Numbered from the stretch's first letter, positions 4,192 to 59,468 are shown. The stretch: DNA of 64,000 nt from Pseudomonadota bacterium (GCA_039800105.1 JBDLRI010000110.1:3970-67969), one strand, 5' to 3'. The notes: generated from the sequence alone by a model not told the origin. Numbers and translations are program-made.

Positions 4192-4671
4192 TCATGGAGC
4201 CTCCCCGTCGGAGGAGCCGGGGGATTCGGGGGCGTCGGCCTTGCCGCCCGCGCGTCCGGCCTGGCGCTCCCTGAGGTAGACGAGGACGCGGCGCGTGTCG
4301 TGCACGTCCAGGGTCTCGGCGAAGCCCGGCATGCGCCCACGTCCGTCCTGCACCAGGCGGGTCCACGGCGCCAGGTCCCGGGGCGCCGACGGAAGCGGTG
4401 GCACGCCCCCCACCACGGCGGACGCGGCCGGACCGTCTCCGCGTCCGGTGTCGCCGTGGCAGGAGGCGCAGGAGCGGCCCCACAGCGTGCGTCCCACGTC
4501 GACGTCGGGCGGACGCTTCGTCGGCACGGCGCTGTCTCCGTTGGCCTTGGCCGCGACGGGCGGGGTGCCCGCGCGCGGGGGAGGCGTTGCGGAGGGGGCG
4601 GCGTCAGCCCCCTCCGCCCCAAGCAGCAGAAGGAGCCAGACGGGCAGCAGTTCGACGCGCATGCGGGCCAT
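4192..4671 (-). CDS. Exported monoheme class I cytochrome c
   Basis: Hydrophobic signal (LLPVWLLLLLG), CASCHG heme motif and GRGRMPGF Met ligand. Start is ATG 4671 or 4662. Confidence 0.8.
   Translation of the reverse strand: MARMRVELLPVWLLLLLGAEGADAAPSATPPPRAGTPPVAAKANGDSAVPTKRPPDVDVGRTLWGRSCASCHGDTGRGDGPAASAVVGGVPPLPSAPRDLAPWTRLVQDGRGRMPGFAETLDVHDTRRVLVYLRERQAGRAGGKADAPESPGSSDGEAP
4577..4622 (+). repeat. Palindromic repeat family copy 1 (inside cytochrome c gene)
   Basis: GGAGGCGTT then stem GCGGAGGGGGC (4589-4599) / GCCCCCTCCGC (4607-4617), then CCCA. Confidence 0.8.
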
Positions 4672-4745
4672 GCCGCCTTCGTATCGCGTGGCGGGGGCTG
4701 ACGCGCGGGCCACGATCCTGCTAGGCTGCCTCGACGGAGTTGCCC

Positions 4746-5759
4746 GTGGTCCTGCTCGCCCTGCTCGGCTGCCATCTCTTCACGCCCATCTCCATCACCT
4801 GCGTCGCGGGCATGACCTGCGCACAGGACAGCGGTGACACGGCGACCGCGATCGACACCGGGACCGCGGACACCGCGGGCAGCGACACCGGCGCCGCGGA
4901 CACGGCCGCCGCGGTCGCGACCGTCGGCATGGCGTGGCTCGGCACCGACGCCGCGGGCACCGCCGTGGGACGAACCTTCTCGGCGGACGGGACCCCGCGC
5001 GCGGACACCGTGCCCGCGTCCCCCGTGCCGTCCGGTCCCTTCGACGTCGACCTCGCCGGCGGCACGTGGCTGTTCGCCATGACCTCCGCCTCCGGACCCG
5101 CCACCGCGGTCGCGGCCTACACGGCGAACGGCCTGGGCGCGTGGGTGACCCTCCCGGATGACGACGGCGACGGCACTGTGGAGCCTGCCCTGCAGATCGA
5201 GCTGGTCGACGGCATCGGCTACGTCCTCACCCGCGCGGCGGTCTACCGCTTCGACCCGGCCGACGGCACGGGCGGCCGTGTCACCGTCGGCCCCCTGCTG
5301 AGTCAGGACGTTCCGGTGGGCTTCGCGGTGGACGTGCGCGGACGGGTGCGGGTGGTGACGCGCAACGCGAGCACCGGTGCGCTCGTCGTGTACACCTTCA
5401 GCCCCGCGTCGGGCAACGGCTACACCAACACCGGCTACGTGCCCCAGGCGAACAACGGTGCCGCACGCGCGGTGGCGATCGGCCCCGATGAGGCCCCCTA
5501 CGTCTGCGAGACCGACGGCACTGTCCGGCCCGCGCTGGGCGACGGGAGCGTGCTCTCGACCCCCGTCGTGAGCGGGGTGCGGCTGGAGGGCAACGAGCCC
5601 GTCACCGACGTGACGGCGTGCGCCTGGGACGCGGGCGACGCGAGCTGGCGCCTCTTCAGCCCGACCCACGGCTTCCTTCACGCCATGGGCGGCGCGGCGT
5701 CCGTCCTGGTGGCGCCCGACGCGACGATGGCGTCGCTGTCCGCCGGCGCGTTCGACTAG
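4746..5759 (+). CDS. Hypothetical lipoprotein (DTG low-complexity linker, probable beta-propeller)
   Basis: Lipobox-like LLALLGC, DTG/DTA repeats and a beta-rich body. GGAG lies 6 nt before GTG 4746; alternative start TTG 4740. Confidence 0.65.
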   Translation: MVLLALLGCHLFTPISITCVAGMTCAQDSGDTATAIDTGTADTAGSDTGAADTAAAVATVGMAWLGTDAAGTAVGRTFSADGTPRADTVPASPVPSGPFDVDLAGGTWLFAMTSASGPATAVAAYTANGLGAWVTLPDDDGDGTVEPALQIELVDGIGYVLTRAAVYRFDPADGTGGRVTVGPLLSQDVPVGFAVDVRGRVRVVTRNASTGALVVYTFSPASGNGYTNTGYVPQANNGAARAVAIGPDEAPYVCETDGTVRPALGDGSVLSTPVVSGVRLEGNEPVTDVTACAWDAGDASWRLFSPTHGFLHAMGGAASVLVAPDATMASLSAGAFD

Positions 5760-5770
5760 CGGGACCAGGC

Positions 5771-6685
5771 GTGCGTGTGCTCGTGACCGGGGCGGGCGGG
5801 CGGATCGGCGCGCCGCTCGTGGCCGCCCTGCGGCGAGACGGGCACGAGGTGAGGACCGCGAGCGCCCGGGACCCGGAGGCGCTCGCGGAGGCGTCCCGCG
5901 GCTGCGGGTGGGTGTTCCACCTCGGCGGCGGTGTGCGCGGTCCGGGACGGGACACGGCGGACGTGCTCAACCGCGTGGGTACGGAGCGCCTGGTCGCCGC
6001 GCTCCGACGCGGCGGCGGCGCGCCGCGGGTGGTGCTGGCGTCGAGCGCGGCCGTGTACGGCGACCGCTCGGGCGCCTGGGTGGACGAGGCGGCTCCCCCG
6101 TTGCCGGATACGGACTACGGACGCGCCAAGGTGGCCGCGGAGCAGGCACTGCGGGAGTCCGGACTCCCCGTCGTCGTCGCCCGGATCGGGATGGTGGTGG
6201 GACGCGGGCTGCCCACCGCCCGCGAGGGTGCTCTCGCACGGGGGCGCGCCTGGCTGCCCGGAGAGGGCGTCAACCACGTGCCGATGATCCACCTCGCGGA
6301 TGCCGTGGAGGGCCTGCGGCACCTCGCGGCCCATGCCACGGACGGGGAGATCGTGCACCTCGCGGCCCCGGCGACCCCGACCCTGCGGGCCTACTACGAC
6401 GCCGTGGCGGCCAGGGTCCGGGCACGCGGCGAGGGGGATGGCCGGGTCCGTTTCTGGAGCACCTGGGTACCCGGGGCGCTCCAGTACGCGCTCGCGCGAC
6501 GCGTGGAGTCGCTCGCGACGCAGCTGGGCACGCGCCCCCCGGTCACGCCCGACCTCCTTCGGCTCTGGACGGCCTCGGCGCGGCTCCGCACCGAACGCCT
6601 CGGCGACGGACTCGGATACCGCTGGCGACACCCGGATCCCTGCGCGCCCGACGCGCTTGACGCCGACCTCCCCGGCGGCCTATAG
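5771..6685 (+). CDS. NAD-dependent epimerase/dehydratase (extended SDR)
   Basis: VLVTGAGGRIG Rossmann motif, SSAAVYG, YGRAK (YxxxK). Confidence 0.85.
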   Translation: MRVLVTGAGGRIGAPLVAALRRDGHEVRTASARDPEALAEASRGCGWVFHLGGGVRGPGRDTADVLNRVGTERLVAALRRGGGAPRVVLASSAAVYGDRSGAWVDEAAPPLPDTDYGRAKVAAEQALRESGLPVVVARIGMVVGRGLPTAREGALARGRAWLPGEGVNHVPMIHLADAVEGLRHLAAHATDGEIVHLAAPATPTLRAYYDAVAARVRARGEGDGRVRFWSTWVPGALQYALARRVESLATQLGTRPPVTPDLLRLWTASARLRTERLGDGLGYRWRHPDPCAPDALDADLPGGL

Positions 6686-6706
6686 GACCTGGTCGGAGAC
6701 GCCCGC

Positions 6707-7954: not shown

Positions 7955-8089
7955 CACGATTGTTCCGCCGGGACGTCCCGGGTTCGTGGTCGCCGCCGAC
8001 GGTGTGGCGAACCGCACCGGGAGGCCCGGCGGACGTCGTGACCCCGACGGTGGAGTGCGGGCCTGCGCGGCCCGCCCTCCCCGTGCGGC

Positions 8090-8440: not shown

Positions 8441-8532
8441 GATGTCTCCAGGTGACGGGGACGTCGTAGCCGGCGGGCACCGCCCGCGCCACCGGGCCCC
8501 ACGCGCGGGAGCGGAGCGATTAGGAGGGCCCC

Positions 8533-12361: not shown

Positions 12362-12388
12362 GCGGAGACTCCCGAGGAAGGGGGACGC

Positions 12389-15383: not shown

Positions 15384-15478
15384 GGTGAACCCCTGGAAGG
15401 CGCGCCGGCGCTATCCCGGGGTCCGCGGGCGGCAAGCGCCCGACGCGGGCCTTGCGGGGCCTTGACAACTCCCTTCCC

Positions 15479-15513
15479 GGGGCGGGGGGCTACCCACCCC
15501 CCGCAACGCCCCC
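15479..15513 (-). repeat. Palindromic repeat family copy 2 (supplies the GNAT stop codon)
   Basis: Minus strand GGGGGCGTTGCGGGGGG-TGGGTAG-CCCCCCGCCCC; the TAG in the loop ends ORF 15490-16164. Confidence 0.8.
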
Positions 15514-16164
15514 GGGCGGGGCGTCCAATCGTACGCAGGCGTCCAGGTCCAGGACACACGTCACCATGGCCTTGCCGTAGAAGGTGAACGCGGCGCGCTC
15601 CTCGAAGCCCCACCGTGCCAGCTGGCGTCGGGCGTCGGCGTTGTCCTGCTCGGTGGTCACCTTCACCGCGCGGTGCCCGCGGTCGCGCAGCGCCTCGAAC
15701 AGCACCTTGTTGATGTGACCGCTCACGCGGGTGCCGCGCAACGCCGGAACGAACGAGCAGAACAGGCTCTCCGCGGGCACGTCCCGCGCACCGCTGCGGT
15801 CGCCGTAGCGCCCGGTCTCGAGCAGCAGCGGCAGCACGTCGGGCGCGCGCACCAGTCCGCGCGCGGCGGCCCGCGCCAACGGCACCGCACGGGCACGGAG
15901 CACGGCGCGCCGCATCGCGTCGGTGTCGGTGCTTCCGGCGATGAATCCGCCGAGGCCGCCCTCGTGGTCGTACACGTACCCGAGGAAGCGCGGATCCCGG
16001 AGAAGGCCGGCGTAGATCGCCTCGAGAAACGGCACGCCCAGGCGCGCCCAGAGGCTTCGCCCCATCGCGGCGTGGTGCTGGGCCGCCACCGCCGGCACGT
16101 CGCGCGCCTCCATCGGGCGGATCCGCGCGTGCACCGCGGGATCGACCGGAAACGCGGCGCTCAC
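15490..16164 (-). CDS. GNAT-family N-acetyltransferase
   Basis: IRPMEARDV, PALRGTRVSG (motif A-like), N..ARRQLARWGF; ATGA coupling to the dpgB-like gene. Confidence 0.75.
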   Translation of the reverse strand: MSAAFPVDPAVHARIRPMEARDVPAVAAQHHAAMGRSLWARLGVPFLEAIYAGLLRDPRFLGYVYDHEGGLGGFIAGSTDTDAMRRAVLRARAVPLARAAARGLVRAPDVLPLLLETGRYGDRSGARDVPAESLFCSFVPALRGTRVSGHINKVLFEALRDRGHRAVKVTTEQDNADARRQLARWGFEERAAFTFYGKAMVTCVLDLDACVRLDAPPGGVAGGG

Positions 16165-18887: not shown

Positions 18888-20051
18888 ATGGCCCCGTCGA
18901 CCCCCTTTCTGCTCCTTCCCCTCCTGCTCGCCGCGTGCGCCGACCCCGGGCCCGTGATCGTGCCGCCGGACGACTCCGATGACACCGGGACCCCCGCCGA
19001 CGACACCTCGCCGGAGGCGTCCGACGATGACACCGACCGCGACGGGTTCTCGGTGGCCGAGGGCGACTGCGACGACGCGGACGTGCGCGTCTCTCCCGCA
19101 CGCGAGGAAGACCCCGACGACGGCGTCGACAACGACTGCGACGCGCGCGTCGACGAGGCCTTCGCGGGGGTCACCGTCGGGCTGGTGACCGCCTGGCCGA
19201 CCCTCACGTCGGGCGGATCCGGTGATCTCCTGCGCATCGACTCGGTCGGCCGGCTCTCGGACTCCATCGCCCTCACGGGCTGCGCGCCGCTCTGGATCGA
19301 CACCCTCGGGGACGGCTGGGTGGTCAACTGCGAGCAGTCCCGCATCCTGCGGGTCGACGCCGACGGATCGACGACGGTGCTTCTGGACGCCGACCTCCAC
19401 TTCGCGGAGCGGCCGTCCTTCGGACTCTGGGGCGCGGCGGCGGATCGCGACGGCAGCGTCTACGTCAGCACCATCGACAGCCTCGTGCGGGTGAGCCCCG
19501 AAGGCATGGTCTCCGTCGTCGCGACGTGGGTCGTGGCCCTGGACGACCCCGACACCCACGAGTTCGCCGCGTCCGCGGTGGCGGTCGACTGGGTCACCGG
19601 GGAGGTCGGCCTCTTCGACTACTTCGGCGGCTTCGCGACCTGGTCGCCCCCGGTGGTCACCGCGCAGGGGGGGGTCGCGCCGATCGCGATCCTGGCGTCC
19701 GGCGACCTCGAGAATCCGGCCCTGCTCACGTTCACGGGCACGCACTCCGACCGCGGCGACTGGGTGACCCCCGCCATCGACGCGGCGACCGGGCGCACCG
19801 GTCTCTACACCTGGGACGACGCGCAGGCGGCGTGGGTATCCATCGCGAGCTGGAGCGCGGAGAACAGCGAATGGGAGCCGGTGGCGCTGGCCATCGACGG
19901 CGGCACGGGCGACGCCTACGTGACCGCCAACGGTGGCTGGTACAGCACCGTGTGGCGCGTCCTCGACGGCGGCACCACCGCGCACGACCTCTACGAGTAC
20001 GGCGGCACGTCCGCGGACACGTCCTTCTGGGGCGTCGTGGTGCAGCAGTGA
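18888..20051 (+). CDS. Lipoprotein with putative metal-binding (DxDxDG..DCDD..DNDCD) motif and beta-propeller
   Basis: LLAAC lipobox; DTDRDGFSVAEGDCDD...DGVDNDCDARVDE motif typical of myxobacterial surface proteins. Confidence 0.75.
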   Translation: MAPSTPFLLLPLLLAACADPGPVIVPPDDSDDTGTPADDTSPEASDDDTDRDGFSVAEGDCDDADVRVSPAREEDPDDGVDNDCDARVDEAFAGVTVGLVTAWPTLTSGGSGDLLRIDSVGRLSDSIALTGCAPLWIDTLGDGWVVNCEQSRILRVDADGSTTVLLDADLHFAERPSFGLWGAAADRDGSVYVSTIDSLVRVSPEGMVSVVATWVVALDDPDTHEFAASAVAVDWVTGEVGLFDYFGGFATWSPPVVTAQGGVAPIAILASGDLENPALLTFTGTHSDRGDWVTPAIDAATGRTGLYTWDDAQAAWVSIASWSAENSEWEPVALAIDGGTGDAYVTANGGWYSTVWRVLDGGTTAHDLYEYGGTSADTSFWGVVVQQ

Positions 20052-20221: not shown

Positions 20222-20448
20222 GGTCCACCTCGTCGTGGTGTCGTGCCCTGCGCCCGCACGGGCCGGGGCGTTGCGGGGGCGGCCCGAGCCCCCGCCCCAT
20301 CGGACGTCGGGGACAGAGCGCCGTCGAGTACATGCTGGCGCTGTCGGTCATCGCCATCGTCATCGCGGGCGCGTTCAGCGCCATGGGCGCCGGCGTGGGC
20401 GGCGCCTTCCACAACGTGCGCGCCGTCGTGGGGCTGCCGTACCCATGA
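20218..20448 (+). CDS. flp: Flp/Fap pilin
   Basis: RRG|QSAVEYMLALSVIAIVI Flp cleavage motif (E+5, Y+6); start uncertain. Confidence 0.75.
   Translation: MRSTSSWCRALRPHGPGRCGGGPSPRPIGRRGQSAVEYMLALSVIAIVIAGAFSAMGAGVGGAFHNVRAVVGLPYP
20265..20299 (+). repeat. Palindromic repeat family copy 3 (in putative pilin leader)
   Basis: GGGGCGTT-GCGGGGGC-GGCCCGA-GCCCCCGC-CCCA. Confidence 0.8.
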
Positions 20449-34525: not shown

Positions 34526-35338
34526 ATGGCGATGGACGTGGTGGACTACGAGATCAAGGGCGCCGAGATGCAGTTCGTGGAGGTCGAGCTGGACCCCGGC
34601 GAGGCCGCGGTCGGCGAGGCCGGCAGCATGATGTTCATGGATTCTTCCGTCACCATGGACACGGTGTTCGGCGACGGGTCCGGCCAGGAGGGCGGCTTCC
34701 TCGGCAAGCTGCTCGGCGCGGGCAAGCGCCTCATCACCGGGGAGTCGCTCTTCACCACGGTCTACACGAACGGCGGCACCCGCAAGGTGCGGGTGGCGTT
34801 CGCGGCGCCCTACGCCGGCGCGATCCTGCCGATGGATCTGCACGCGCTGGGCGGCACGCTCATCTGCCAGAAGGACGCGTTCCTGTGCGCGGCCCGGGGC
34901 GTGTCGCTCGGACTGCACTTCCAGCAGAAGCTCTCCACCGGCTTCTTCGGCGGCGAGGGCTTCATCATGCAGAAGCTCGAGGGCGACGGCATGGCCTTCC
35001 TGCATGCCGGCGGCACGGTCGTCCAGCGGCAACTCCAGCCCGGTGAGACGCTGCTCGTCGACACCGGCTGCCTCGTGGCCTACCACCCGACGGTGAACTT
35101 CGAGATCCAGTACGTCGGCAAGATCAAGACCGCGCTCTTCGGTGGGGAGGGCCTGTTCTTCGCGAAGCTCACCGGGCCCGGCACCGTGTGGGTGCAGAGC
35201 CTGCCGTTCTCCCGGCTCGCCAGCCGCGTCTTCGCCGCGGCGCCGAAGGGCGGCGGCACGTCCCGCGAGGAGGGCAGCGTGCTCGGTGGCTTCGGCGCCG
35301 GCAGCCTGCTCGGCACCATGCTCGGCGGGGACGAGTAG
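34526..35338 (+). CDS. TIGR00266/AIM24 family protein
   Basis: MQFVEVELDPGEA, GESLF, GFFGGEGFIMQKL, GPGTVWVQSLP. Confidence 0.9.
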   Translation: MAMDVVDYEIKGAEMQFVEVELDPGEAAVGEAGSMMFMDSSVTMDTVFGDGSGQEGGFLGKLLGAGKRLITGESLFTTVYTNGGTRKVRVAFAAPYAGAILPMDLHALGGTLICQKDAFLCAARGVSLGLHFQQKLSTGFFGGEGFIMQKLEGDGMAFLHAGGTVVQRQLQPGETLLVDTGCLVAYHPTVNFEIQYVGKIKTALFGGEGLFFAKLTGPGTVWVQSLPFSRLASRVFAAAPKGGGTSREEGSVLGGFGAGSLLGTMLGGDE

Positions 35339-35350
35339 ACGGACGTGTCC

Positions 35351-35388
35351 TGGGGCGGGGGCCTGGGGCCGGCCCCCGCAACGCCCCC
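35351..35388 (-). repeat. Palindromic repeat family copy 4 (intergenic)
   Basis: Minus strand GGGGGCGTT-GCGGGGGCC-GGCCCCA-GGCCCCCGC-CCCA. Confidence 0.85.
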
Positions 35389-35453
35389 GGCCCGGTGCGC
35401 GCGGGCACCGAACCGTCGGATGTCGGCGGCCGTCGGCGGAGATACCCTTCGGC

Positions 35454-36458
35454 ATGGCGCCGTCCTCACCTCCGCCCGCTCCGCGCGGAACCGTGCTCCT
35501 CTCGGGCGCCACCGGCTTCGTCGGGCGCGCGGTCGCCGTCCCCCTCGAACGCGCCGGCTGGCACGTGCGCCGCGGCACGCGGGACGTGAAGCGCGCACGC
35601 CAGCGCACGCCGCATGCCGACTGGGTCGCGCTCGACGTCGACGAACCGGCCTCCGTGGCCGCCGCGATGCAAGGCTGCGACGCGGCGGTGTACCTGGTGC
35701 ACGGCATGGGCGGGCATGCCGAGGACTTCCGGCGCGCCGAGGTCCGGCAGGCCGAGACCTTCCGCCTCGCCGCGGAGCGCGCCGGCGTGCGCCGCGTCGT
35801 GTACCTGGGCGGGGTGGCCGCGCCGCGGGACGCCTCGGAGCACCTGCGCAGCCGGGAGGACGTGGGGCGCGTCCTGCGCGCGGGAGCGGTGTCGACCGTC
35901 GAGCTGCGTGCCAGCATGATCATCGGGCACGGGAGCCTGAGCTGGCAAATCGTACGCGACCTCGCGGCGCGCCTTCCGGTGATGGTTCTGCCGCGATGGC
36001 TCGAATCCCGCACACAGCCCGTGGCCATCGCGGACATCGTCGACGCGATCGTGGGCGCGCTCGAGCTCGGGCAGGACGGCAGCGCGTGGCACGACGTGCC
36101 GGGCCCCGAGATCCTATCGGGGCGGGAGATCCTCGAGCGCACCGCGGCCGTCATGGGCCTGCGGCCGCCGCTGATGGTCGAGGTGCCGCTCCTCACGCCG
36201 CGCCTGTCCTCGCACTGGGTGCGCCTGGTCACGGCCGCGGACTGGGCCGTGGCCCGGGAGCTCGTGGTGGGGCTCACCACCGACCTGCTCGCCCGCGACG
36301 CCGACTACTGGCGCCGCATCGACCACCCGACCCTGATCCCGTTCGATGACGCCGCGCGCGCCGCGTTGGCGGTCGAGCGGCGCGAGGGCCCCGTGCGCGG
36401 AGCCTGGGGTGCCGTCGAGCGCGTGCTCGTGCGCGCGCCCGGAGCGGTCGGCCGTTGA
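35454..36458 (+). CDS. NAD(P)-binding atypical SDR (YbjT-like)
   Basis: LLSGATGFVG, YLVH, SEHLRSR, LRASMIIG.GS, TQPVAIAD. Confidence 0.85.
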   Translation: MAPSSPPPAPRGTVLLSGATGFVGRAVAVPLERAGWHVRRGTRDVKRARQRTPHADWVALDVDEPASVAAAMQGCDAAVYLVHGMGGHAEDFRRAEVRQAETFRLAAERAGVRRVVYLGGVAAPRDASEHLRSREDVGRVLRAGAVSTVELRASMIIGHGSLSWQIVRDLAARLPVMVLPRWLESRTQPVAIADIVDAIVGALELGQDGSAWHDVPGPEILSGREILERTAAVMGLRPPLMVEVPLLTPRLSSHWVRLVTAADWAVARELVVGLTTDLLARDADYWRRIDHPTLIPFDDAARAALAVERREGPVRGAWGAVERVLVRAPGAVGR

Positions 36459-39129: not shown

Positions 39130-40179
39130 TCAGCGGAGCGCGTCGGCGACGGTCTGCGCGAGCGCGTCCCCGGCCGTGCGGGCGTTGACGGCGGGCACGC
39201 CGAGCTTGCGCTCGATGAACGTGCGACCCACGGCGTTGTCGGTGGTCGGACCCGTCACGACGGTGAGTCCGATGCCGAGCGCGTCGCGCAGGAACGTCGC
39301 GGCCCCCCAGGCGCCGACGGGATCGTTCGCGCACATGACGTGCACCTTCGCGGGCGCGACGAGGTCCGGGGTCTGCAGGATCTCGAAGACTCCGTACTCA
39401 CCCATGATCCCGTCGCCGAGCTCGATGACGAGGCAGTCGAGCTTCTCGCCCCGGGCCGGGTCGTTGAGGGCCTGGAGCAGCGCGCGGGCCACCGGCGGGG
39501 CGCTCTCCGGGCGGGTCGACACGATGCCGGCGTCGTTGAAGTTGAAGGCGCGGACGGCGCCGACGTCCTCCATCTTCAGCGTGTCGCGCCGCAGGCTCAC
39601 GCCCGTCAGCTTCGCCGCGCCGACGCGCAGCCCGCGGCGGGTCAGCCCGCGGATGATCTCGCACGCCGCGAAGGTCTTGCCGGCGTTCATGCACGTGCCC
39701 GACACGTAGACGATGGGCACGCTGGACTCCACCCGCTCGCAGGCCGGGAGCGCGTTGGTGCGGATCGTCGCCGGGACGCCGCGGCGCTCGCCGAGGTGCG
39801 GGAAGGCGAGCACCTGGCCCAGCACCTCGACACGGCACGGCGGGCCGACGTCGGGGTTCGCGCTCGTGCACTGCCCGATCACGCCGCCGAGGTTGAGCAG
39901 GTGAAGGGTGTCGCCCGGCTTCACGCTCTCGGGGATGATGCCGCTGTAGCCGTGCAGCGCACGGCGCTCGCCGAGCACGCCGGCGACGATGTCGCCCTCG
40001 TTCACGGTGGCCATGCGGCCGTGGCAGTCCTCCAGCTCGTTGTAGGTGCTCTTCCGCTCGAGCGCCCGCACCGCGAGGATGGAGCCCTCGGCCGCGATGA
40101 TTTGCCCGGTGAGCGTGACCTCGCGGGAGAGGGCCGCGTTGCGCGTGGCCGACGCGATCTTGTCGAGGCGGACCTTCAC
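39130..40179 (-). CDS. Uncharacterised P-loop protein, DUF1611-like, inside the arg operon
   Basis: GTG overlaps the argG stop. GDIVAGVLGERRALHGYSG, GGVIG, SGTCMNAGKT, AAKLTG...D, IELGDG, DPVGAWG motifs. Confidence 0.75.
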   Translation of the reverse strand: MKVRLDKIASATRNAALSREVTLTGQIIAAEGSILAVRALERKSTYNELEDCHGRMATVNEGDIVAGVLGERRALHGYSGIIPESVKPGDTLHLLNLGGVIGQCTSANPDVGPPCRVEVLGQVLAFPHLGERRGVPATIRTNALPACERVESSVPIVYVSGTCMNAGKTFAACEIIRGLTRRGLRVGAAKLTGVSLRRDTLKMEDVGAVRAFNFNDAGIVSTRPESAPPVARALLQALNDPARGEKLDCLVIELGDGIMGEYGVFEILQTPDLVAPAKVHVMCANDPVGAWGAATFLRDALGIGLTVVTGPTTDNAVGRTFIERKLGVPAVNARTAGDALAQTVADALR

Positions 40180-41363
40180 GACGATGCCTTCGCGGCGCGG
40201 ACCTGCGCGCGGGCCGCCAGGACGCCCTGGAGCCCGTAGACGGCGCTGAAGCCGCGCGCATCCTGGGCGCTCCAGAGGCCGTTCTCCTCGCCGTAGCGTC
40301 CCGCCTCGTCGTCCATGAGCGAGTAGGGGCTGCGCACGCCGCGCACCTCCACGCGGCCCTGCTCGAGGTGCACGCGCACCTCGCCGGTCACGACGCGCTG
40401 GCTGCTCGTCAGGAACGCCTCGATGTCCCGCATCACGGGGTCGAAGTAGTGACCCTCGTGCAGGAGCATGCCGTAGAGCGTGCCGAGCTGCTCCTTCTGC
40501 CACAGCTGCATCCGCGTGAGCACGAGCTTCTCCAGCTCGCGGTGCGCGTCGATGAGGATGGCGGCGGCGGGCGCCTCGAAGGCCACGCGGCCCTTGATGC
40601 CGAGGATGGTGTCGCCGAGGTGCATCCCGCGGCCCACGCCGTGCGCGGCGCCCAGCGTGTTGAGCGCCTCGACCTGCGCCAGCCCGCCGTCCACGTCGCC
40701 CTGCTCGAAGCGGACGACCACGTCGGTGCCGCCGGCGGGCGCGGAGGCCGGACTCGTGGTGGTGACCCACGCGTGCTCCGGCAGGTACGCCCAGGCGTCG
40801 TGGGTCTCGCGACCGCCGATGGTGACGCCCCACAACCCTTGGTTGACGCTGTAGTCGCGCTTCTCGGCGGACACCGGGAAGCCCTGCGCGGTGAGGAACG
40901 CCGCGGACTGCGCGCGGGTGATGCGCTCGTCGCGGATGGGCGTGAGGATGCGCGCCCCGGGCAGGAGCGTGCGGATCGCCACGTCGAAGCGGATCTGGTC
41001 GTTGCCGGCGCCCGTGGAGCCGTGGGCCACGGCGTCCGCACCGATCTCGCGCGCCATCTCGGCGACCGCCTGCGCCTGCACGACGCGCTCGGCGCCCACG
41101 CACAGCGGGTAGACGCCGCCGCGGCGCACGTTGGCCTTCACGAGCCACGCCACGTGCTGGCGGTACACGCGCTCGCGCGCGTCCACGAGGCGGAAGTCCG
41201 CTGCGCCCAGCTCGGTGGCGCGCTGCGCGATGGCGGCGCGGGCCGCGTCGTCCAGGCCGCCGGTGTCGACGGTCACGACCGTCACGCGGTGCCCCTCGGC
41301 GACGAATCGCCGGAGGAGGTAGGACGTGTCGAGCCCGCCGGAGAAGGCGAGGAGCAGGTTCAT
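40176..41363 (-). CDS. argG: Argininosuccinate synthase
   Basis: LAFSGGLDTS, AHGSTGAGNDQIRF, GIKGRVAFEAP. Confidence 0.95.
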   Translation of the reverse strand: MNLLLAFSGGLDTSYLLRRFVAEGHRVTVVTVDTGGLDDAARAAIAQRATELGAADFRLVDARERVYRQHVAWLVKANVRRGGVYPLCVGAERVVQAQAVAEMAREIGADAVAHGSTGAGNDQIRFDVAIRTLLPGARILTPIRDERITRAQSAAFLTAQGFPVSAEKRDYSVNQGLWGVTIGGRETHDAWAYLPEHAWVTTTSPASAPAGGTDVVVRFEQGDVDGGLAQVEALNTLGAAHGVGRGMHLGDTILGIKGRVAFEAPAAAILIDAHRELEKLVLTRMQLWQKEQLGTLYGMLLHEGHYFDPVMRDIEAFLTSSQRVVTGEVRVHLEQGRVEVRGVRSPYSLMDDEAGRYGEENGLWSAQDARGFSAVYGLQGVLAARAQVRAAKASS

Positions 41364-41439
41364 CGGAGGGTCCCCCCTGGTTCGGACCCCCGCGTCTATC
41401 GGATGGGTCGGGGTGTGCAACGTTGCGTCGTCAAGTCCC

Positions 41440-41478
41440 TGGGGCGGGGGCGTCAGGCCACGCCCCCGCAACGCCCCC
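41440..41478 (-). repeat. Palindromic repeat family copy 5 (between mntP and argG)
   Basis: Minus strand GGGGGCGTT-GCGGGGGCGT-GGCCTG-ACGCCCCCGC-CCCA. Confidence 0.85.
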
Positions 41479-41498
41479 GGCCCGCGCGCCCTCGTGCG

Positions 41499-42056
41499 TC
41501 ACACGGCGAGGTGCAGCCACAGCACCCGGGCCCCGAGGCCGACCAGCACGGCGCCGCCGAGCTTCTCCAGGTGCCCGCCGGCGGCGGCCGCCACGCGCTG
41601 CGCGAGCAGGAGGGCGCTGCCGCTCAGGACGGCGGTCACCACGCCGATGGTGGCCAGCGACAGCGCGAACGGCGCGTTCATGAGCGGCAGGCTCACGCCG
41701 GCCGCGAGCGCGTCGATGCTGGTCGCGACCGCGAGCGGCAGGAGCGCCGTCCACCCGAGGCGGGAATCCGAGGGTTCCCCGTCGGCTTCGTCCCCGCCGC
41801 GGAGCATGCGCACGCCGAGCCCCGCGAGGAGCACGGCGGCGATCCACGGGCTCCACCGTGCCGCCACGCCTCCCAGCGCCACGCCGCCCCACCAGCCGAG
41901 CGCCGGCATGAGGGCCTGGAACCCGCCGAACAGGACTCCGACGCGCAGGGCCTCGCGGGGGCCGCACCCCGTCGCTGCGAGTCCGCGCGCCGCAGCGACC
42001 GCGACGGCGTCCATGGCGAGCGCGACGGCCAGGGCCACGATGGCGACGAACGACAT
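41499..42056 (-). CDS. mntP: Manganese efflux pump MntP
   Basis: LAMDAVAV, FGGFQALMP, ATSIDALAAG, EKLGG motifs. Confidence 0.9.
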   Translation of the reverse strand: MSFVAIVALAVALAMDAVAVAAARGLAATGCGPREALRVGVLFGGFQALMPALGWWGGVALGGVAARWSPWIAAVLLAGLGVRMLRGGDEADGEPSDSRLGWTALLPLAVATSIDALAAGVSLPLMNAPFALSLATIGVVTAVLSGSALLLAQRVAAAAGGHLEKLGGAVLVGLGARVLWLHLAV

Positions 42057-42065: not shown

Positions 42066-43286
42066 CTAACCGATCCCGGCCAGCCCCAGATCCTCGCGGA
42101 TGGCGGCGCAGGGCGCGTCGATACCGTCGGGCCAGGCGCCGTCGTCCCACAGGGCGATCATGCGCAGGCGCCCACGGAAGGTGGTCCACACGACGCCGGC
42201 GCGCGCGGGCGGAACGAGCCGGGGGAAGTTCACGAAGTCCGTGACGCGCAGGTCGCCGAAGGTATCGAGCGGCACGTGCACGGGCCCCGGGTTCGTGTGG
42301 ACCACGTCCGCCTTCACCACCAGGCGGGTCGTGGCCCGGATGGCCAGTTCCACGGGGATCCAGTCAGCGACGGACTCGTAGAGTCCGAGACGTGCGAGTT
42401 CGGCCCGTGCCACCCCCTCCTTCACGGTCGCGACCTGCGCAGCGACGGTGGCGGCCGCGTCGTGCGCGTGGCCGGCGCCCGGCACGTGCAGGACCCACGG
42501 CACGACCAGCACGTCCGCGCGCGCGCCCACGTCCGCCGTGGCGAGCCCCCGCACGGAGGCGAGGTCGAGCAGCCGGCTCGTGCCGAACGCCCGCGCCGTC
42601 GCGAGGCACAGGCGCACGTGCGGGGTGGTCCCGTCCGCGGCCGCGCGCGCCTTCACGCGCCCCCACGCCGCGGGGCCGAGGTCCAGGACCCGGACGCGCG
42701 AGCGCCCACGCGGCAGGGTCGGGTCGCGTGTCCACGCCGCGGGCGCCGCGAGATCCGACAGGATGCGCCGCAGGGCCGCGACACGCTCCCCGGCGCGGGT
42801 CGGAAGCAGCACCTCCGGCTCCCACGGGGCGTCGTCCGCCCGACGGACCGGCGTCGTGCCCCGCCCGAGCGCGCCATAGGCCTCGGCGAGATCGGCCACG
42901 ACCTGCGCGCCGCTGCGGGCGTCGGTGCGGGCGTGCGGCACCTGGATCGCCAGGCCGTCGCGGTCACGCGCGCGGATCCAGCGGACCTGCGTGGCGTCGG
43001 GATCGCCGTCCTCCCAGGCCCGGGCAGCGCACGCGGACGTATCCCACGGGGCATCGTGCTCCTCGGGGGTCACGCGCAGCGGCGCGTCGGGCGTCGCCCA
43101 GCGCGTGCGGTCCCAGCGGACGTGCAGCAAGGGATGCTGCGCGACGACGTGGTCGAGCGCCGCCTCGAGCCGCGCGCCGTCGAGCCGGCCGTCGAGGGCC
43201 ACGAGCTCGCAGGAGCGCGTGTCGACCTGCGTGGCGAGGCGCTGCCAGGCGCGTGCGGCGGGGCCGGCCGGCAGCCCCTCGGTCAT
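42066..43286 (-). CDS. Stand-alone condensation-domain/PapA-like acyltransferase
   Basis: L..AL..VV..HPLL, HARTDARSG (HxxxDxxS), TNPG; ATGA-coupled to prmC. Confidence 0.65.
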   Translation of the reverse strand: MTEGLPAGPAARAWQRLATQVDTRSCELVALDGRLDGARLEAALDHVVAQHPLLHVRWDRTRWATPDAPLRVTPEEHDAPWDTSACAARAWEDGDPDATQVRWIRARDRDGLAIQVPHARTDARSGAQVVADLAEAYGALGRGTTPVRRADDAPWEPEVLLPTRAGERVAALRRILSDLAAPAAWTRDPTLPRGRSRVRVLDLGPAAWGRVKARAAADGTTPHVRLCLATARAFGTSRLLDLASVRGLATADVGARADVLVVPWVLHVPGAGHAHDAAATVAAQVATVKEGVARAELARLGLYESVADWIPVELAIRATTRLVVKADVVHTNPGPVHVPLDTFGDLRVTDFVNFPRLVPPARAGVVWTTFRGRLRMIALWDDGAWPDGIDAPCAAIREDLGLAGIG

Positions 43287-44182
43287 CGCGCGTCCGGCGG
43301 GGGGCGTTGCGGGGGGCTGTCCCCCCGCCCCAGGAGGCCCGGAACGGTGGCGACCACGACGCGCTCGATCCCGGCGAGATCGGCGTGGAGAGCCGTCTCC
43401 AGCCCGGCGTCGCGGCACATCGCCGCAACCGCCGTCGCCTGGCCCGCGCCGACCTCGAGGAGGACCCCGCACCGCGCGCGGGCAGCCGCCTGCGGGACGA
43501 GCCGCCGGTACACGTCGAGGCCGTCGGGGCCACCGTCGAGCGCGAGGCGCGGCTCGTGGCGCGACACCTCCGGCGCGAGGGCGTCGATCTCGGCGCTCGG
43601 GATGTAGGGAGGGTTGGAGAGCACCCAGTCGACGGGGCGGCCCGCGGGCACGGCGGCGAGCAGATCGCCGCGCAGCACCCCCACGCGCTCGCAGAGGCCG
43701 AGCCGGGCCACGTTCGCCTTCGTCGTGGCGCGGGCCTCGTCGGAGAGATCGATGGCGTAGAGGCGCACGCCGGGCCGTGCCGCCGCCACGGTGAGCCCGA
43801 TGCAGCCGGTCCCGCAGCCCACGTCGGCCACGTAGACCGGGTCGGCGTCGGCGGGGATGCGCGCCAGCGCCTGCTCGACGAGGATCTCCGTGTCCGGCCG
43901 CGGAACGAGCGTGCCGGGCCGGACCTCGAAGGTGTGCGCGTGGAAGTCGCGCGTCCCGAGCACCCACGCGAGCGGCTCCCGGGTGCCGCGGCGCTTCACG
44001 AGCGGCCGCAACACGGCCAGCTCGGACTCCGGGAGGGGCCGGTCGAACTGGAGGTAGACCTGCACGCGGGTCATCCCGAGCACGTGCGCGAGGATCAGCT
44101 CGGCGTCGAGCCGCGCGGACGGGATGCCGGCAGCCTTGAAGAACTCCGTCGTGGCCGCGAGGACCTCGCCGAGCGTCCTCAC
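43283..44182 (-). CDS. prmC: Release factor glutamine methyltransferase
   Basis: LVPRPDTE, DVGCGTG, SNPPY, EPRLALDGGPDGL. Confidence 0.95.
   Translation of the reverse strand: MRTLGEVLAATTEFFKAAGIPSARLDAELILAHVLGMTRVQVYLQFDRPLPESELAVLRPLVKRRGTREPLAWVLGTRDFHAHTFEVRPGTLVPRPDTEILVEQALARIPADADPVYVADVGCGTGCIGLTVAAARPGVRLYAIDLSDEARATTKANVARLGLCERVGVLRGDLLAAVPAGRPVDWVLSNPPYIPSAEIDALAPEVSRHEPRLALDGGPDGLDVYRRLVPQAAARARCGVLLEVGAGQATAVAAMCRDAGLETALHADLAGIERVVVATVPGLLGRGDSPPQRPPPDAR
43299..43332 (+). repeat. Palindromic repeat family copy 6 (in prmC C-terminus)
   Basis: GGGGGGCGTT-GCGGGGGG-CTGT-CCCCCCGC-CCCA. Confidence 0.85.
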
Positions 44183-49748: not shown

Positions 49749-50480
49749 CTACCAGCGCCAACCCAGCGCCCCGTCGACACCCCATCCCGCGCCGGCCCAG
49801 GCGCGGCCGACCGCCAGGATCCGCCCGTGGCCCGCGGCAGGCCCCCCGAGCGGATCGGAGGCGAGCGTGGCGCCCATCACCGCCCGCACGGGCACCCGCG
49901 TCGTGACGGGCACGTCGACACGCCCGCCGGCCAGGGACCACCGCTCGCCGAGCGCCACGTCACTCTCCGCGCCCAGCCACGCGCTCGCGCCGTCGTCGAG
50001 GCGTCCCGGTGCCCAGGCGGCGCCCGCGCGGACGACCGTGCCCGCCCGCGCGTCGACTCCGTCGACGTCCTGCGTCCGCAGCGCGCCGCCCCACGCGGCG
50101 AGCGGCACGCCGCCGGCGCGCCCGGCGAGCTGGATGCCGCCGCCCGCCTGCCATCCCTGGCCCTCCCAGGCCGCGGCGCGCACCGTGGTCGTGCTCCGCG
50201 CGCCCTCGAGCCACCCCGCGACGCGAAAGCCCCCGGTGCGGGGGGAGGCGTTGCGGAGGGGGGGCGCCCCCCCTCCGCCCCATGGGCCTCCGAGCTGAAC
50301 CTGCAACGACCCGCCGAGGACGGTCGCGCGCTCGAGCGCCTCGCACGCCTCGGAGCACGAACCGGCGCGGGCGACCCGGAGCATGCGGCCCGCACCCACG
50401 AGGAACTCGACCCCCGCGGGATCGGCGACGCCGATGCGCGGTGGGGTCGCGTGCGCGATGCCGACGAGGAGGAGGAACAC
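49749..50480 (-). CDS. Hypothetical exported, possibly outer-membrane beta-barrel protein
   Basis: Signal-like FLLLVGIAHA, alternating beta pattern, C-terminal GWRW. Confidence 0.5.
   Translation of the reverse strand: MFLLLVGIAHATPPRIGVADPAGVEFLVGAGRMLRVARAGSCSEACEALERATVLGGSLQVQLGGPWGGGGAPPLRNASPRTGGFRVAGWLEGARSTTTVRAAAWEGQGWQAGGGIQLAGRAGGVPLAAWGGALRTQDVDGVDARAGTVVRAGAAWAPGRLDDGASAWLGAESDVALGERWSLAGGRVDVPVTTRVPVRAVMGATLASDPLGGPAAGHGRILAVGRAWAGAGWGVDGALGWRW
50240..50282 (+). repeat. Palindromic repeat family copy 7 (in-frame inside hypothetical ORF)
   Basis: GGAGGCGTT then perfect palindrome 50253-50278 GCGGAGGGGGGGCGCCCCCCCTCCGC, then CCCA. Confidence 0.8.
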
Positions 50481-55950: not shown

Positions 55951-55962
55951 GACCCGGGGCGC
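55941..55962 (+). repeat. 22-bp direct repeat, right copy
   Basis: CACGCCGTAGGACCCGGGGCGC; contains the stop codon of the large gene. Confidence 0.85.
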
Positions 55963-56078
55963 CCCGGCGGCGTGCGCCGCCGTCGGGCCGCTGCGCCCTC
56001 GCGCGGTCGCGCTCGCCCCCGCGTGCCGCGGGGACCGCTGCCGCGGGGCTGCGCGTCCCTGGCGCGCGGACGGGTGCG

Positions 56079-58307
<2,229 letters not shown>

Positions 58308-58333
58308 GGCGGTGACCCCGGCTGGCAGGGGTT

Positions 58334-58711
58334 CTAACCTGCGCGTGGGGCCGGGGCGTCGGGGGGCGGCAGGTCGACGAGCAGCGTGCGCGCGACGATG
58401 AGCAGCGCGTCGCGCCGCGAAGGGGGAAGGGCGTCGTAGGCGTGCAGCAGCTCGGCGCGGTGCACGTCGGACGTGAGCCGCACGCTCGCATCCTCGTCGA
58501 GCAGCGCGGCCACCGGCACGCGCAACGCCGCGGCGAGCCGCTCGACCGTGTCCACGTGGAGGCCGGCACGCCCGCGCTCGATGCGGGAGAGGCTCGCCGG
58601 GTCCAGCGAGGCGCGCTCGGCGAGCTCCTGCTGGGACAGGCCGGTCGCCTCGCGGGCGGCCCGCACCCGCGCCCCGATGCGGGTGCTCAACGCCGACGGT
58701 GAATCAGCCAT
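58334..58711 (-). CDS. XRE-family HTH transcriptional regulator
   Basis: IGARVRAAR..GLSQQELA..LSRIERG..LAAAL.V. Confidence 0.88.
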   Translation of the reverse strand: MADSPSALSTRIGARVRAAREATGLSQQELAERASLDPASLSRIERGRAGLHVDTVERLAAALRVPVAALLDEDASVRLTSDVHRAELLHAYDALPPSRRDALLIVARTLLVDLPPPDAPAPRAG

Positions 58712-58741
58712 GAACGGCAGGATGTCGACACCGGCAGCCGT

Positions 58742-58793
58742 TGGCCACGGCGTAAAGATCAAATCACGATTGATAAAAGAGCGTGGCCACGCT
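58742..58793. promoter_or_regulatory. Divergent AT-rich promoter with palindromic candidate operators
   Basis: ATCAA-N7-TTGAT (58758-58774); perfect 14-bp palindrome AGCGTGGCCACGCT (58780-58793); TGGCCACG at 58742. Confidence 0.5.
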
Positions 58794-58831
58794 AGCGTCG
58801 TGGCGCAACGTCCATACGAGGAGGTGGTTGC

Positions 58832-59272
58832 ATGCTGTCTTCACTGATTCTTTCGTTGGTGCTCGACGCCAACGCCGCGAGTTGCCCGTGGGCCGGTCTG
58901 AACAAGCCGACGGTTTCCACGTCGAAGCACGAGGTGTTCGTGAACGGAACGTCCTACCGGGTGAAGAGCGAAACGGAGATGGAGGCGTTCGAGGACAATC
59001 TGAGCGCATGCAATGTCAACGAGGCAGGTCGATACCTGCGCCGATGGCGCGGACGCCAGTCGACGGCGGGAACGTATGCATGGGCGGGTCCGGTGCAGGT
59101 GGTCGCCGGGCTGGTGTTCCTCGCGGACACCTCAACCGAGACGTTCGGGTGGGTCTTCCTAGGCCTAGGCGCTGTGGAGAGCATCGCCGCGCCCGTCCTG
59201 CGTGGGCAAGGGGTACAGGCGCGCGACACGATGGTCGCCAAGATTGCCGCATCGACCCCACCGACTAAATAG
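58832..59272 (+). CDS. Hypothetical exported protein with two C-terminal TM helices, atypical codon usage
   Basis: GAGGAGG RBS, signal peptide, many A/T-ending codons relative to neighbours. Confidence 0.65.
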   Translation: MLSSLILSLVLDANAASCPWAGLNKPTVSTSKHEVFVNGTSYRVKSETEMEAFEDNLSACNVNEAGRYLRRWRGRQSTAGTYAWAGPVQVVAGLVFLADTSTETFGWVFLGLGAVESIAAPVLRGQGVQARDTMVAKIAASTPPTK

Positions 59273-59291
59273 TCGAGCGGTCGTCCGGTCC

Positions 59292-59416
59292 GGGGGGCGT
59301 TGCGGGCACGCCGCCGCGGTTGGCCCCGGCAGGGGCCTCGAGCGGCGAGCGTGGGGAGGACGCGTCCGCCGCAGGCGGCGCCGAGCCAGGCTCGGCGAGC
59401 GCCGGACCCCGCCCCC
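59292..59416 (+). repeat. Expanded repeat copy 8 with ~100-nt multi-hairpin interior (MITE/structured RNA candidate)
   Basis: Same GGGGGGCGTTGCGGG 5' end and CCCGCCCC 3' end enclosing three hairpins. Confidence 0.6.
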
Positions 59417-59433
59417 GGAGGCCGACGCCCGGC

Positions 59434-59468
59434 GGGGGGCGTTGCGGGGGGTGGAACCCCCCGCCCCA
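59434..59468 (+). repeat. Palindromic repeat family copy 9 (intergenic)
   Basis: GGGGGGCGTT-GCGGGGGGT-GGA-ACCCCCCGC-CCCA. Confidence 0.85.

Follow-up and report, generated by a model that had tools for sequence, protein, structure and literature searches.

GTAG REPs and REPINs are mobilised by RAYT, a Y1 HUH transposase (PF01797). Like the family described here, they are short extragenic palindromes that number in the hundreds, are patchily distributed and fall into subfamilies within a single genome. Rickettsia palindromic elements and other intragenic REPs sit in frame and are translated as short inserts, as some of the present copies are. According to the cited sections of Di Nocera et al. 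(2013, PMC3733652), CGTC-tagged REPs carry a head tetranucleotide followed directly by a ~8-9-bp stem with a short loop, and end in a CCA-like tail that is unpaired; they lie after coding regions, between co-directional and convergent genes, with some copies inside genes, lack a dedicated transposase and favour head-to-head pairs. BoxC/PIT/TMECO repeats of E. coli and other Proteobacteria, in the cited sections of Holder et al. (2015, PMC4666352), are short intergenic G/C-rich dispersed repeats of three blocks: short loops connect a purine arm, the Watson-Crick complement of that arm and a mirror image of the purine arm. They have no transposon link, include some close inverted pairs and vary strongly in copy number between close relatives. 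All these features of the CGTC-tagged and BoxC/PIT/TMECO repeats recur in the present family. The fold of BoxC/PIT is solid in vitro and its role in living bacteria unclear. In the same sections, DMS footprinting in vivo showed no protection of BoxC/TMECO (PMC4666352).

We analysed a window of 64,000 nt from a Pseudomonadota genome of 3.6 Mb (G000). The 12-mer GGGGCGTTGCGG, with at most one mismatch, matches nine times in the window (Table 1), while dinucleotide shuffles of the window give a mean of 2.08 matches and reach nine in 1 of 100 cases. The original prediction had placed nine copies, in both orientations, between 4577 and 59434, and all nine anchors are where it put them. Eight of them are anatomically complete: the stem is perfect over 8-11 bp, the loop measures 3-7 nt, the tail reads CCC(A) and the mirror arm is 6-11 nt long. 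The ninth is not a full copy: the anchor at 59292 has only the family head (a G-run, CG, TT and GCGGG), which opens a long form, continues into ~130 nt of structured G/C-rich insert and closes in the copy at 59434. A covariance model built from 22 copies found no further copy in the window, and an Rfam search of the whole window gave no match at gathering score.

Table 1. The repeat copies, their parts and the neighbouring genes in the window (positions from its first nucleotide)
Feature	Position	Strand	GGGGCGTTGCGG match	Mirror arm	TT	5' arm	Loop	3' arm	Tail	Arm, loop (nt)	Mirror	Covariance model (bits)
Full copy, A-subfamily	4576..4624	+	4581	4576-4586	4587-4588	4589-4599	4600-4606	4607-4617	4618-4624	11, 7	11/11	43.5
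Full copy	15475..15513	-	15501-15512(-)	15507-15513	15505-15506	15497-15504	15490-15496	15482-15489	15475-15481		7/8	53.4
Full copy	20265..20302	+	20265	20265-20270	after mirror arm	20273-20280	20281-20287	20288-20295	20296-20302		6/8	39.5
Full copy	35348..35390	-	35376-35387(-)							9, 7	9/9	47.7
Full copy	41437..41479	-	41466-41477(-)							10, 6	8/10	47.4
Full copy	43299..43335	+	43301							8, 4	8/8	
Full copy, A-subfamily	50240..50285	+	50245	50240-50250		50253-50263	50264-50267	50268-50278	50279-50285	11, 4	11/11	46.2
Long-form copy, ~180 nt	59292..59471	+
Head of long form	59292..59306	+	59294									17.6 (weak)
Complete short copy, 3' end of long form	59434..59471	+	59436									60.2 (59426-59479)
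ORF with stop codon inside the 15475 copy	15490..16134	-
AIM24-family gene (Pfam)	34526..35338	+
NAD-binding protein gene (Pfam)	35493..36458	+
argG (Pfam)	40176..41363	-
MntP-like gene (Pfam)	41499..42056	-
prmC-like ORF (Pfam)	43283..44182	-

Across the genome, GCGTTGCGG occurs 697 times, with a perfect hairpin in 506, and a looser pattern recovers 513 copies. The density is one copy per 7.1 kb, which bears out the expectation of a REP-like dispersed family with hundreds of copies. The strict full pattern matches 392 times and its backwards version 0 times, an excess over chance much plainer than that of the 12-mer. The copies (median length 39 nt) have the architecture [mirror arm]-TT-[5' stem arm]-loop-[3' stem arm]-CCCAGGA, with no GTAG head, as had been predicted. 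Arms measure 7-11 nt in 487 of the 506 copies, the turn from mirror to arm is 2 nt (TT), and 377 copies have a stem loop of 3-6 nt, the others a longer one. Conservation of the tail is 0.98, 0.96 and 0.92 for the three Cs and 0.82 for the A of CCCA, then 0.71, 0.72 and 0.54 for GGA. The long form has 22 anchors genome-wide, all opening with the family head, and the three shortened copies examined at their ends close in a hairpin plus CCGCCCCA. This suggests that the ends of the element are what matters. The copies form a lineage-specific family of ~500 non-coding G/C-rich dispersed repeats that is real and abundant; our searches of the literature on REP and PIT/BoxC repeats found no description of it.

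The GGCGTT foot had been taken as unpaired, which was a misreading. It forms the 3' end of an arm that mirrors the 5' stem arm and covaries with the stem: the bases upstream of the TT repeat those of the 5' arm in reversed order, without complementing them. The mirror is perfect over the whole length of the arm in 327 of the 506 copies and has one mismatch in 162, whereas re-pairing arms among copies of equal arm length yields on average 202.5 perfect mirrors and never more than 226. The compensated A:T pair reported for the first and seventh window copies (GCGGAGG.../...CCTCCGC) is real, and the foot carries the matching A in both. Genome-wide, the arm has no A in 311 copies and an A at position 5, 6 or 7 in 184, 7 and 4. 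Of 198 stem-arm As, 189 have an A as their mirror partner and 7 a T, and the mirrored position is kept in the position-5 (173), position-6 (6) and position-7 (4) variants. For runs of 4 to 7, plotting the G-run lengths of the three arms against each other places them on the diagonal or beside it. The third arm changes with the 5' stem arm in both base identity and G-run length. This covariation is mostly carried by few subfamilies, so independent events are few. At one orthologous site compared across six genomes, mirror and 5' arm have G-runs of equal length in 1/6 and of lengths within one of each other in 5/6; the run lengths there are loosely coupled, and the third arm therefore drifts in place.

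The three-block symmetry is the sequence signature of a potential intrastrand triplex of class I/III, as in BoxC/PIT/TMECO. A purine arm, its Watson-Crick complement and a third, mirror arm are all present in the family; the ITxF search criteria for classes I-IV (Hoyne 2000; Holder 2015, PMC4666352), as given in the cited sections, ask for 6-15-nt stems carrying no more than one mismatch and for 1-6-nt loops. An antiparallel third strand requires a mirror arrangement according to the same sections (PMC4666352), and a mirror rather than a direct repeat favours a triplex, because the alternative Watson-Crick hairpin would be better served by a direct repeat. We propose that, on the single-stranded G-rich strand, the stem would form and the mirror arm would fold back antiparallel onto the purine arm. 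The resulting structure would be a class I purine-motif intrastrand triplex (G.G:C, A.A:T, T.A:T), and the complementary strand would adopt a class III pyrimidine-motif arrangement. Both A and T opposite a stem A are permitted purine-motif triplets. The three-armed fold would then be the selected feature, most likely the structure by which an enzyme other than a linked RAYT recognises and propagates the copies; local DNA instability would be a side effect of the fold. Taken whole, a repeat family whose three-armed triplex fold is selected for copy recognition and propagation is probably the best explanation of the data. Against a triplex count the fixed C at position 2 of the arm (C.C:G) and the C at some other mirrored positions, which are not canonical triplets, and the shortness of the TT turn. 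The small number of independent covariation events, the drift of the third arm in place and the missing in vivo protection of BoxC/TMECO also weigh against it. ViennaRNA folding covers Watson-Crick pairs only, and the triplex is read from symmetry alone. The hairpin energy z-scores of the window copies, only -0.65 to -1.87, were left out of the evidence because any G/C-only shuffle folds well.

The family differs from BoxC/PIT/TMECO, as described in the cited sections of Holder et al. (PMC4666352), in several respects. TMECO belongs to class II, with the pyrimidine arm first, whereas here the mirror (reverse-Hoogsteen) arm is 5', followed by the purine and pyrimidine arms, as in class I; the BoxC/TMECO class is thus not that of the present repeats, and the TMECO consensus is unrelated to them in sequence. 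At ~500 copies in 3.6 Mb, the present density is far higher: E. coli MG1655 has 23 copies, and no genome in that paper exceeds 143. TMECO is always intergenic and more often upstream of ORFs, whereas the present copies lie mainly after stop codons and some are inside ORFs. The TMECO triplex has been demonstrated in vitro, and the present one is proposed from sequence symmetry. From the CGTC-tagged families the repeat differs in its 7-11-nt mirror arm upstream of the head, which is absent from the cited sections of their description, and in inverted pairs that are kilobases apart rather than tens of bases (PMC3733652).

Among related genomes, strict matches number 392 in G000, 0 in a second genome of the same genus (G001), 14-232 in genus g9 and 4-50 in genus g15. 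A strict match is present in 19 of 154 genomes of the order and in 2 of 121 sampled from the phylum. The copy-rich genomes are G000, G013, G110, G023, G129 and G133. The covariance model scored 150 candidates per genome in G001, G002 and G010 without a match, and a generic triplex finder detected no analogous family in ~30 kb of G001. The genes of G001 are only 74-78% identical to those of G000 and synteny is broken, so the site-by-site comparisons concern copies of other genomes. There, empty-site alleles of the kind proposed as a check do exist. At site B, an in-frame 11-codon insert in the copy-rich genome G013 is missing from 2/2 congeners, and in a 20-kb syntenic block three G013 copies are missing from 5/5. 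A copy between convergent genes is kept in 6/7 congeners, its flanking genes being ~77-90% identical, and at site C the G013 copy adjoins a canonical hairpin-plus-T-run terminator kept in 6/6 genomes. The family is therefore patchy among relatives and has been gained or lost at orthologous sites. In a scan of public collections with an A-variant 20-mer, the 12 matches listed comprise eight from one other MAG and one from a second, all true copies, and three single chance matches without a 3' arm. The 120-nt flanks matched only the repeat itself in G000.

Copies are mostly extragenic and lie just past stop codons, at a median distance of 12-14 nt. In the window, the 41437 copy lies upstream of argG, with the stop codon of the MntP-like gene ~20 nt before it, and the 35348 copy is flanked by the AIM24-family and NAD-binding protein genes. 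The AIM24-family protein matches Burkholderiales proteins at 84% identity. Relative to the preceding gene, 202 copies are in the opposite and 123 in the same orientation. Where both flanks were called, 69 copies lie between convergent and 18 between divergent genes, compared with 389 and 415 background intergenic regions (p 2.8e-8); 80 of 506 copies are embedded in ORFs whose sequence is open and coding-like to either side. These context counts are rough, being drawn from codon-usage scores of the flanks, with at least one flank uncalled in 206 of 506 copies. Gene calls based on GC3, which put 172 of 506 copies inside genes, were discarded since they merged frames in this 73% GC genome. Nearly every pair of neighbouring copies closer than 3 kb is inverted (113 vs 14), and orientation shows no bias with GC skew or replication strand (219 vs 195, p 0.26). 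Inverted copies do not enclose a particular gene family: the 40 ORFs between pairs 250-1500 nt apart are unrelated housekeeping genes.

The proposal that a RAYT or other HUH enzyme spreads the copies found no support. The window holds no transposase, as had been noted, and PF01797 (RAYT-type Y1) has no match in G000, which is 88.7% complete. The domain is present in 17 of 33 genomes of the taxonomic family, where it does not follow repeat copy number. The expected IS200-like gene flanked by copies did not appear: the Y1 loci of G013, G009, G109, G017, G006 and G012 hold no copy, and the 5.5-kb locus around the Y1 gene of G013 has no element. The analysis turned up no linked RAYT-type gene, other mobilising enzyme, target duplication or exact insertion boundary. 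In its strongest form, the triplex reading would make the triple helix the functional unit, the structure by which small RAYT-independent mobile elements are recognised and propagated. The third arm would act like a guide, as in IS200/IS605, over 7-11 nt, with three-way covariation and a purge of close direct pairs as its footprints. We consider this stronger form unlikely.

An ordinary REP of the CGTC kind would require no triplex. Its G-rich foot would do no more than pair with the CCC tail in a short outer helix or contact a protein, and the mirror would be inherited from a few master copies. The CGTT head, 7-11 bp stem, 3-8 nt loop and CCCA tail resemble those families, and the habit of head-to-head pairing without a dedicated transposase is common to both. 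Foot GGG pairs with the CCC tail in the Watson-Crick DNA minimum-energy folds (ViennaRNA) of 8/8 full window copies, and this pairing does account for part of the conservation, which reaches 92-98% in the tail CCC. The small number of A-position classes, about four, and the loosely coupled run lengths at the orthologous site also agree with descent from a few masters. However, an outer helix of three Gs leaves unexplained the exact mirrored position of the A in three variants and the foot G-run that tracks stem runs from 4 to 7. In addition, the cited description of CGTC-tagged REPs gives heads CGTC, TGTC or CCTC and stems that open with A-T at positions 1 and 2, whereas all copies used here have CGTT and open with G-C then C-G (PMC3733652). 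On balance we hold this explanation to be rather unlikely, though it deserves to be taken seriously. Much less can be said for a G-quadruplex or other G:G structure in place of the triplex on the G-rich strand. Each such strand offers two long G-runs, four in the A-variants, and G-rich triplex motifs can in principle compete with quadruplexes (cited sections of PMC4666352). Most copies have only the two runs, however, with a complementary C-arm in cis that forms a perfect 8-11-bp stem, and for TMECO NMR favoured triplex over quadruplex (PMC4666352), which makes the quadruplex highly improbable.

The position of the copies invites a reading as RNA elements useful to the host, namely terminators or stabilisers of mRNA 3' ends kept by selection on the hairpin. 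The short distance from stop codons, the excess between convergent genes and the copy kept at a convergent junction in 6/7 congeners all agree with it. Yet neither strand has a T/U run after the hairpin, one continuing with CCCAGGA and the other with AACGCC, and copies follow genes in both orientations. The copy at site C is not needed where a conserved terminator stands beside it in all six genomes; further copies sit within ORFs that are coding-like on both sides, the sister species has none, and the mirror arm is left unexplained. A role of this kind is quite improbable as the basis of the family. GTAG REPs differ in their head, which the present repeat lacks; no PF01797 gene was found in the present genome, and the Y1 genes checked are unflanked by copies.

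The family comprises hundreds of copies whose three arms all vary naturally, and it has subfamilies where one base change is seen in every arm at once. Copy number ranges from 0 to ~500 among related genomes, and orthologous sites occur in both filled and empty form. Selection acting on a third DNA strand is therefore testable here, through comparative genomics and a few oligonucleotides. The family also joins two separate literatures, those of head/tail-tagged REPs and of triplex motifs.

Such repeats can also become short protein inserts. The 43299 copy overlaps the 3' end of the prmC-like ORF and contributes its last ~18 codons (C-terminus ...VPGLLGRGDSPPQRPPPDAR, then stop), and the ORF whose stop codon lies inside the 15475 copy ends in ...PPGGVAGGG. 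Together with the insert at site B in G013, these translated sequences are Gly/Pro/Ala/Arg-rich. Rickettsia palindromic elements are unrelated in sequence and in three-arm anatomy, and most of the present copies are extragenic.

Contigs of four DNA runs break at copies or cross-map from other copies, and no listed joint skips a copy. One DNA run bridges the copies at 41437 and 50240 and may be the source sample.

Members of the repeat family consist of a mirror arm, an invariant TT, a 5' stem arm, a loop, a 3' stem arm and a tail. The original prediction was of a nine-copy, REP-like palindromic family, and GGGGCGTTGCGG with at most one mismatch indeed has nine matches in the window, all at the predicted positions. 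Dinucleotide-shuffled sequences averaged 2.08 matches, and nine were reached in one of 100 shuffles, in keeping with the expected excess over shuffled sequence. Inspection of the flanks, with boundaries set by script, revealed the common anatomy in eight of the nine, with perfect stems of 8–11 bp and loops of 3–7 nt. The anchor at 59292 alone has only a head and lacks the full anatomy; it opens a long form in which a structured, G/C-rich insert of ∼130 nt separates the head from a terminal short copy. The prediction of nine copies of one family therefore holds for eight full copies, the remaining match being a long-form head only. Across the source genome (G000), 22 anchors of the long form occur, all with the family head at the start and some with internal deletions; the three shortened forms whose ends were examined finish with a hairpin and CCGCCCCA. 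The RNA fold z-score of the long form in the window is only −1.40. A covariance model trained on 22 copies of the element recovered the eight full copies and a weak match to the long-form head, with no further copies in the window, and no Rfam family matched anywhere across the window.

Repeat copies in the window (window positions)
Feature	Position	Strand	Mirror arm matched	Remark
Full copy	4576–4624	+	11/11	
Full copy	15475–15513	−	7/8	
Full copy	20265–20302	+	6/8	
Full copy	35348–35390	−	9/9	
Full copy	41437–41479	−	8/10	Inverted pair with 43299–43335
Full copy	43299–43335	+	8/8	Inverted pair with 41437–41479
Full copy	50240–50285	+	11/11	
Full copy	59434–59471	+	8/9	3' end of the long form
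Long form (∼180 nt)	59292–59471			Family head at 59292; short copy 59434–59471 as 3' end

The window corresponds to positions 3970–67969 of contig C110 of G000. In the G000 assembly (3.60 Mb in 160 contigs, 73.3% GC), GCGTTGCGG occurs 697 times and is followed by a perfect hairpin straight after the TT in 506 cases. The density is thus one copy per 7.1 kb, which bears out the expectation of hundreds of copies at about one per 7 kb; the median copy is 39 nt long. The strict full-length pattern has 392 matches and its backwards-read control none, so that the genome-wide count lies above the control; a looser pattern has 513 matches against 30 for the control. Past the stem, the 3' tail is conserved as C 0.98, C 0.96, C 0.92, A 0.82, G 0.71, G 0.72 and A 0.54. 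Upstream of the mirror arm there is no conservation except for a C at −1, present in 63% of copies.

The GGCGTT segment had been described as an unpaired foot. Instead, the sequence before the TT is the 5' stem arm reversed, forming a mirror repeat that is neither direct nor inverted. Among the 506 copies, mirroring of the whole arm is perfect in 327, with one mismatch in 162, two in 15 and three in two; re-pairing arms and mirrors of equal arm length in 1000 trials yielded a mean of 202.5 perfect cases and a maximum of 226. Where the arm carries an A (T in the 3' arm), the mirrored base is A in 189 of 198 copies, T in seven, and C and G in one each. In fully mirrored copies the A occupies arm position 5 (n = 173), 6 (n = 6) or 7 (n = 4), and in all three variants it is equidistant from the TT on both sides. 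The lengths of mirror and 5'-arm G-runs lie on the diagonal (4/4, 26 copies; 5/5, 32; 6/6, 122; 7/7, 22) or one below it (4/5, 17; 5/6, 52; 6/7, 12), and the 5'- and 3'-arm runs agree, as required of stems. The mirror covariation rests on few subfamilies: 311 copies have no A, 184 have it at position 5, seven at position 6 and four at position 7.

A direct repeat of the 5' arm would be an alternative Watson–Crick partner for the 3' arm, and an inverted repeat is what a protein dimer reads. An antiparallel purine-motif third strand (G.G:C, A.A:T, T.A:T) needs a mirror of the purine arm and a short turn, as outlined by Holder et al. 2015 (PMC4666352). In the class scheme for intrastrand triplexes set out there, the G-rich strand of the element is a potential class I triplex (arm order reverse-Hoogsteen, purine, pyrimidine), and the complementary strand a potential class III triplex. 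We infer triplex folding solely from this symmetry. C is invariant at arm position 2 and also occurs at some mirrored positions, giving non-canonical triplets, and the turn between the mirror arm and the 5' arm is TT only. Folds restricted to Watson–Crick pairs join three Gs of the foot to the CCC tail in all eight full window copies, and part of the conservation follows from this pairing. As the whole explanation, an outer foot–tail helix falls short: it leaves the A positions and the run lengths unaccounted for.

The known bacterial triplex-motif repeats BoxC/PIT/TMECO are class II in the same account (PMC4666352), unlike the element described here, which is class I on its G-rich strand. According to that account, the TMECO triplex is stable in vitro (it melts at 70–82 °C and gives 18 imino signals), DMS footprinting in vivo gave no protection, and TMECO has 23 copies in E. 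coli MG1655 and no more than 143 in any one genome. By its anatomy, the present element is a potential intrastrand triplex element whose class and sequence are unlike BoxC. Its head (CGTT) and tail (CCCA), its position after genes, the absence of a transposase and the presence of some copies inside genes recall the CGTC-tagged REPs described by Di Nocera et al. 2013 (PMC3733652). However, the head and stem start of the element depart from those that define these REPs, and that account makes no mention of a mirror arm. In the literature searched, no description of this repeat family was found.

Spread by a RAYT/HUH enzyme, as known for REP elements, found no support, and no mobilising enzyme was found: the Y1 transposase family PF01797 has no match in G000 (88.7% complete), and no repeat copies lie at the Y1 loci of six relatives (G013, G009, G109 and three others). 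Within the family, 17 of 33 genomes carry PF01797, with no relation to repeat copy number; G012 combines seven copies with four Y1 genes, and G110 has 92 copies and no Y1 gene. A mobilising gene flanked by inverted pairs was likewise rejected, the 40 ORFs enclosed by pairs 250–1500 nt apart being unrelated housekeeping genes. Among neighbouring copies in G000 spaced closer than 3 kb, inverted pairs number 113 and direct pairs 14, compared with 81 and 90 at 4–12 kb (Fisher p = 1.5e-14), and in G013, a copy-rich genome of genus g9, all six pairs closer than 4 kb are inverted, as judged by eye from the copy listing. Close pairs enclose ordinary genes on either strand. Deletions purging close direct repeats would produce such an inverted excess below 3 kb, and this would fit the genomic instability at TMECO loci described by Holder et al. 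(PMC4666352), but it leaves unaccounted for the excess of head-to-head pairs, with mirror arms facing, over tail-to-tail pairs (23 versus 4) below 1 kb.

Gene context was derived from codon-usage scores of the flanks and is rough, with at least one flank uncalled for 206 of the 506 copies. Between co-directional genes, the G-rich form lies on the non-coding strand in 134 copies and on the coding strand in 65. Convergent gene pairs surround 69 copies and divergent pairs 18, against 389 and 415 among background intergenic regions (Fisher p = 2.8e-8). For 202 copies, a coding-like ORF on the opposite strand terminates in the 300 nt preceding the copy (median gap 12 nt); for 123, an ORF on the same strand does so (median gap 14 nt). 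Of the 506 copies, 80 lie within ORFs that are open and coding-like on both sides. Two window copies overlap ORF ends (43283–43340 and 15490–15513): the last ∼18 residues of a prmC-like ORF are encoded by the element in the former, and the stop codon of ORF 15490–16134(−) falls in the loop of the latter copy. On neither strand is the hairpin followed by a T run, and orientation in G000 has no association with GC skew (219 versus 195, p = 0.26).

The strict pattern, so frequent in G000, has no match in the same-genus genome G001. It recurs in all seven genomes of genus g9 (14 to 232 copies each), all three of g15 (4 to 50), one g61 genome (20 copies) and four of 12 g7 genomes (1 to 7). Within the order, 19 of 154 genomes have at least one match, as do two of 121 sampled across the phylum. 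The covariance model accepted all 150 scored candidates in G000 and likewise in G013, and none of 150 in each of G001, G002 and G010. Preferred loops and the tail variant differ genome by genome. A 20-mer of the A-variant has at least 12 matches in a public genome collection; among those listed, eight belong to one other MAG and a ninth to a second MAG, all nine being true copies. Five of the eight readable copies in the first MAG (L083, L084, L092, L093 and L094) carry T rather than C opposite stem position 3, forming a G.T pair with the mirror arm still G, and look like a subfamily with a stem wobble.

Orthologous sites were compared within genus g9, where coding DNA is ∼74–90% identical. 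As anticipated, copies are present at some loci and absent from their orthologues. At site A, between convergent genes, a copy in the same orientation is found in six of seven genomes and is absent in G107. Its runs (mirror, 5' arm, 3' arm) are 6,6,6; 7,6,5; 4,5,5; 4,5,4; 6,5,5; and 4,7,5: mirror and 5'-arm runs are equal in only one of six and within one in five of six, a weaker coupling than among paralogues. At site B, a copy forms an 11-codon in-frame insert in a hydrolase-like gene of G013, with none in G017 or G009. A 20-kb syntenic block holds three G013 copies that are missing in all five congeners. Two of these lie inside a ∼4-kb G013-specific segment (G013 contig C2, locus L135, 1906–6094), itself missing at the syntenic place in all five; its left edge is within ∼30 nt of one copy, and the second, inverted, is 1.8 kb further in. 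With sites filled in some g9 genomes and empty in others, gain or loss of copies operates over the time that separates species of one genus, and a few copies persist much longer.

The third block copy adjoins a minus-strand hairpin with a trailing T run (L135 ∼19090–19140 in G013 and the aligned places in L173–L177), conserved in all six g9 genomes compared. This looks like a canonical intrinsic terminator, so in addition to the repeat the g9 genomes appear to carry ordinary terminators.

Logan contigs of run X2 stop at copies in the window (35365–35376 and 43307–43318), and X2 depth is several-fold higher in bins with copies, owing to cross-mapping from other copies. The repeat breaks k-mer assemblies and probably contributes to the 160-contig state of G000. 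An AIM24-family protein encoded at 34526–35338 of the window is 81–84% identical to Burkholderiales proteins (Roseateles, Rubrivivax, Piscinibacter), and the neighbouring argG has matches of only 73–74%, in two unclassified MAGs; horizontal transfer may be the cause.
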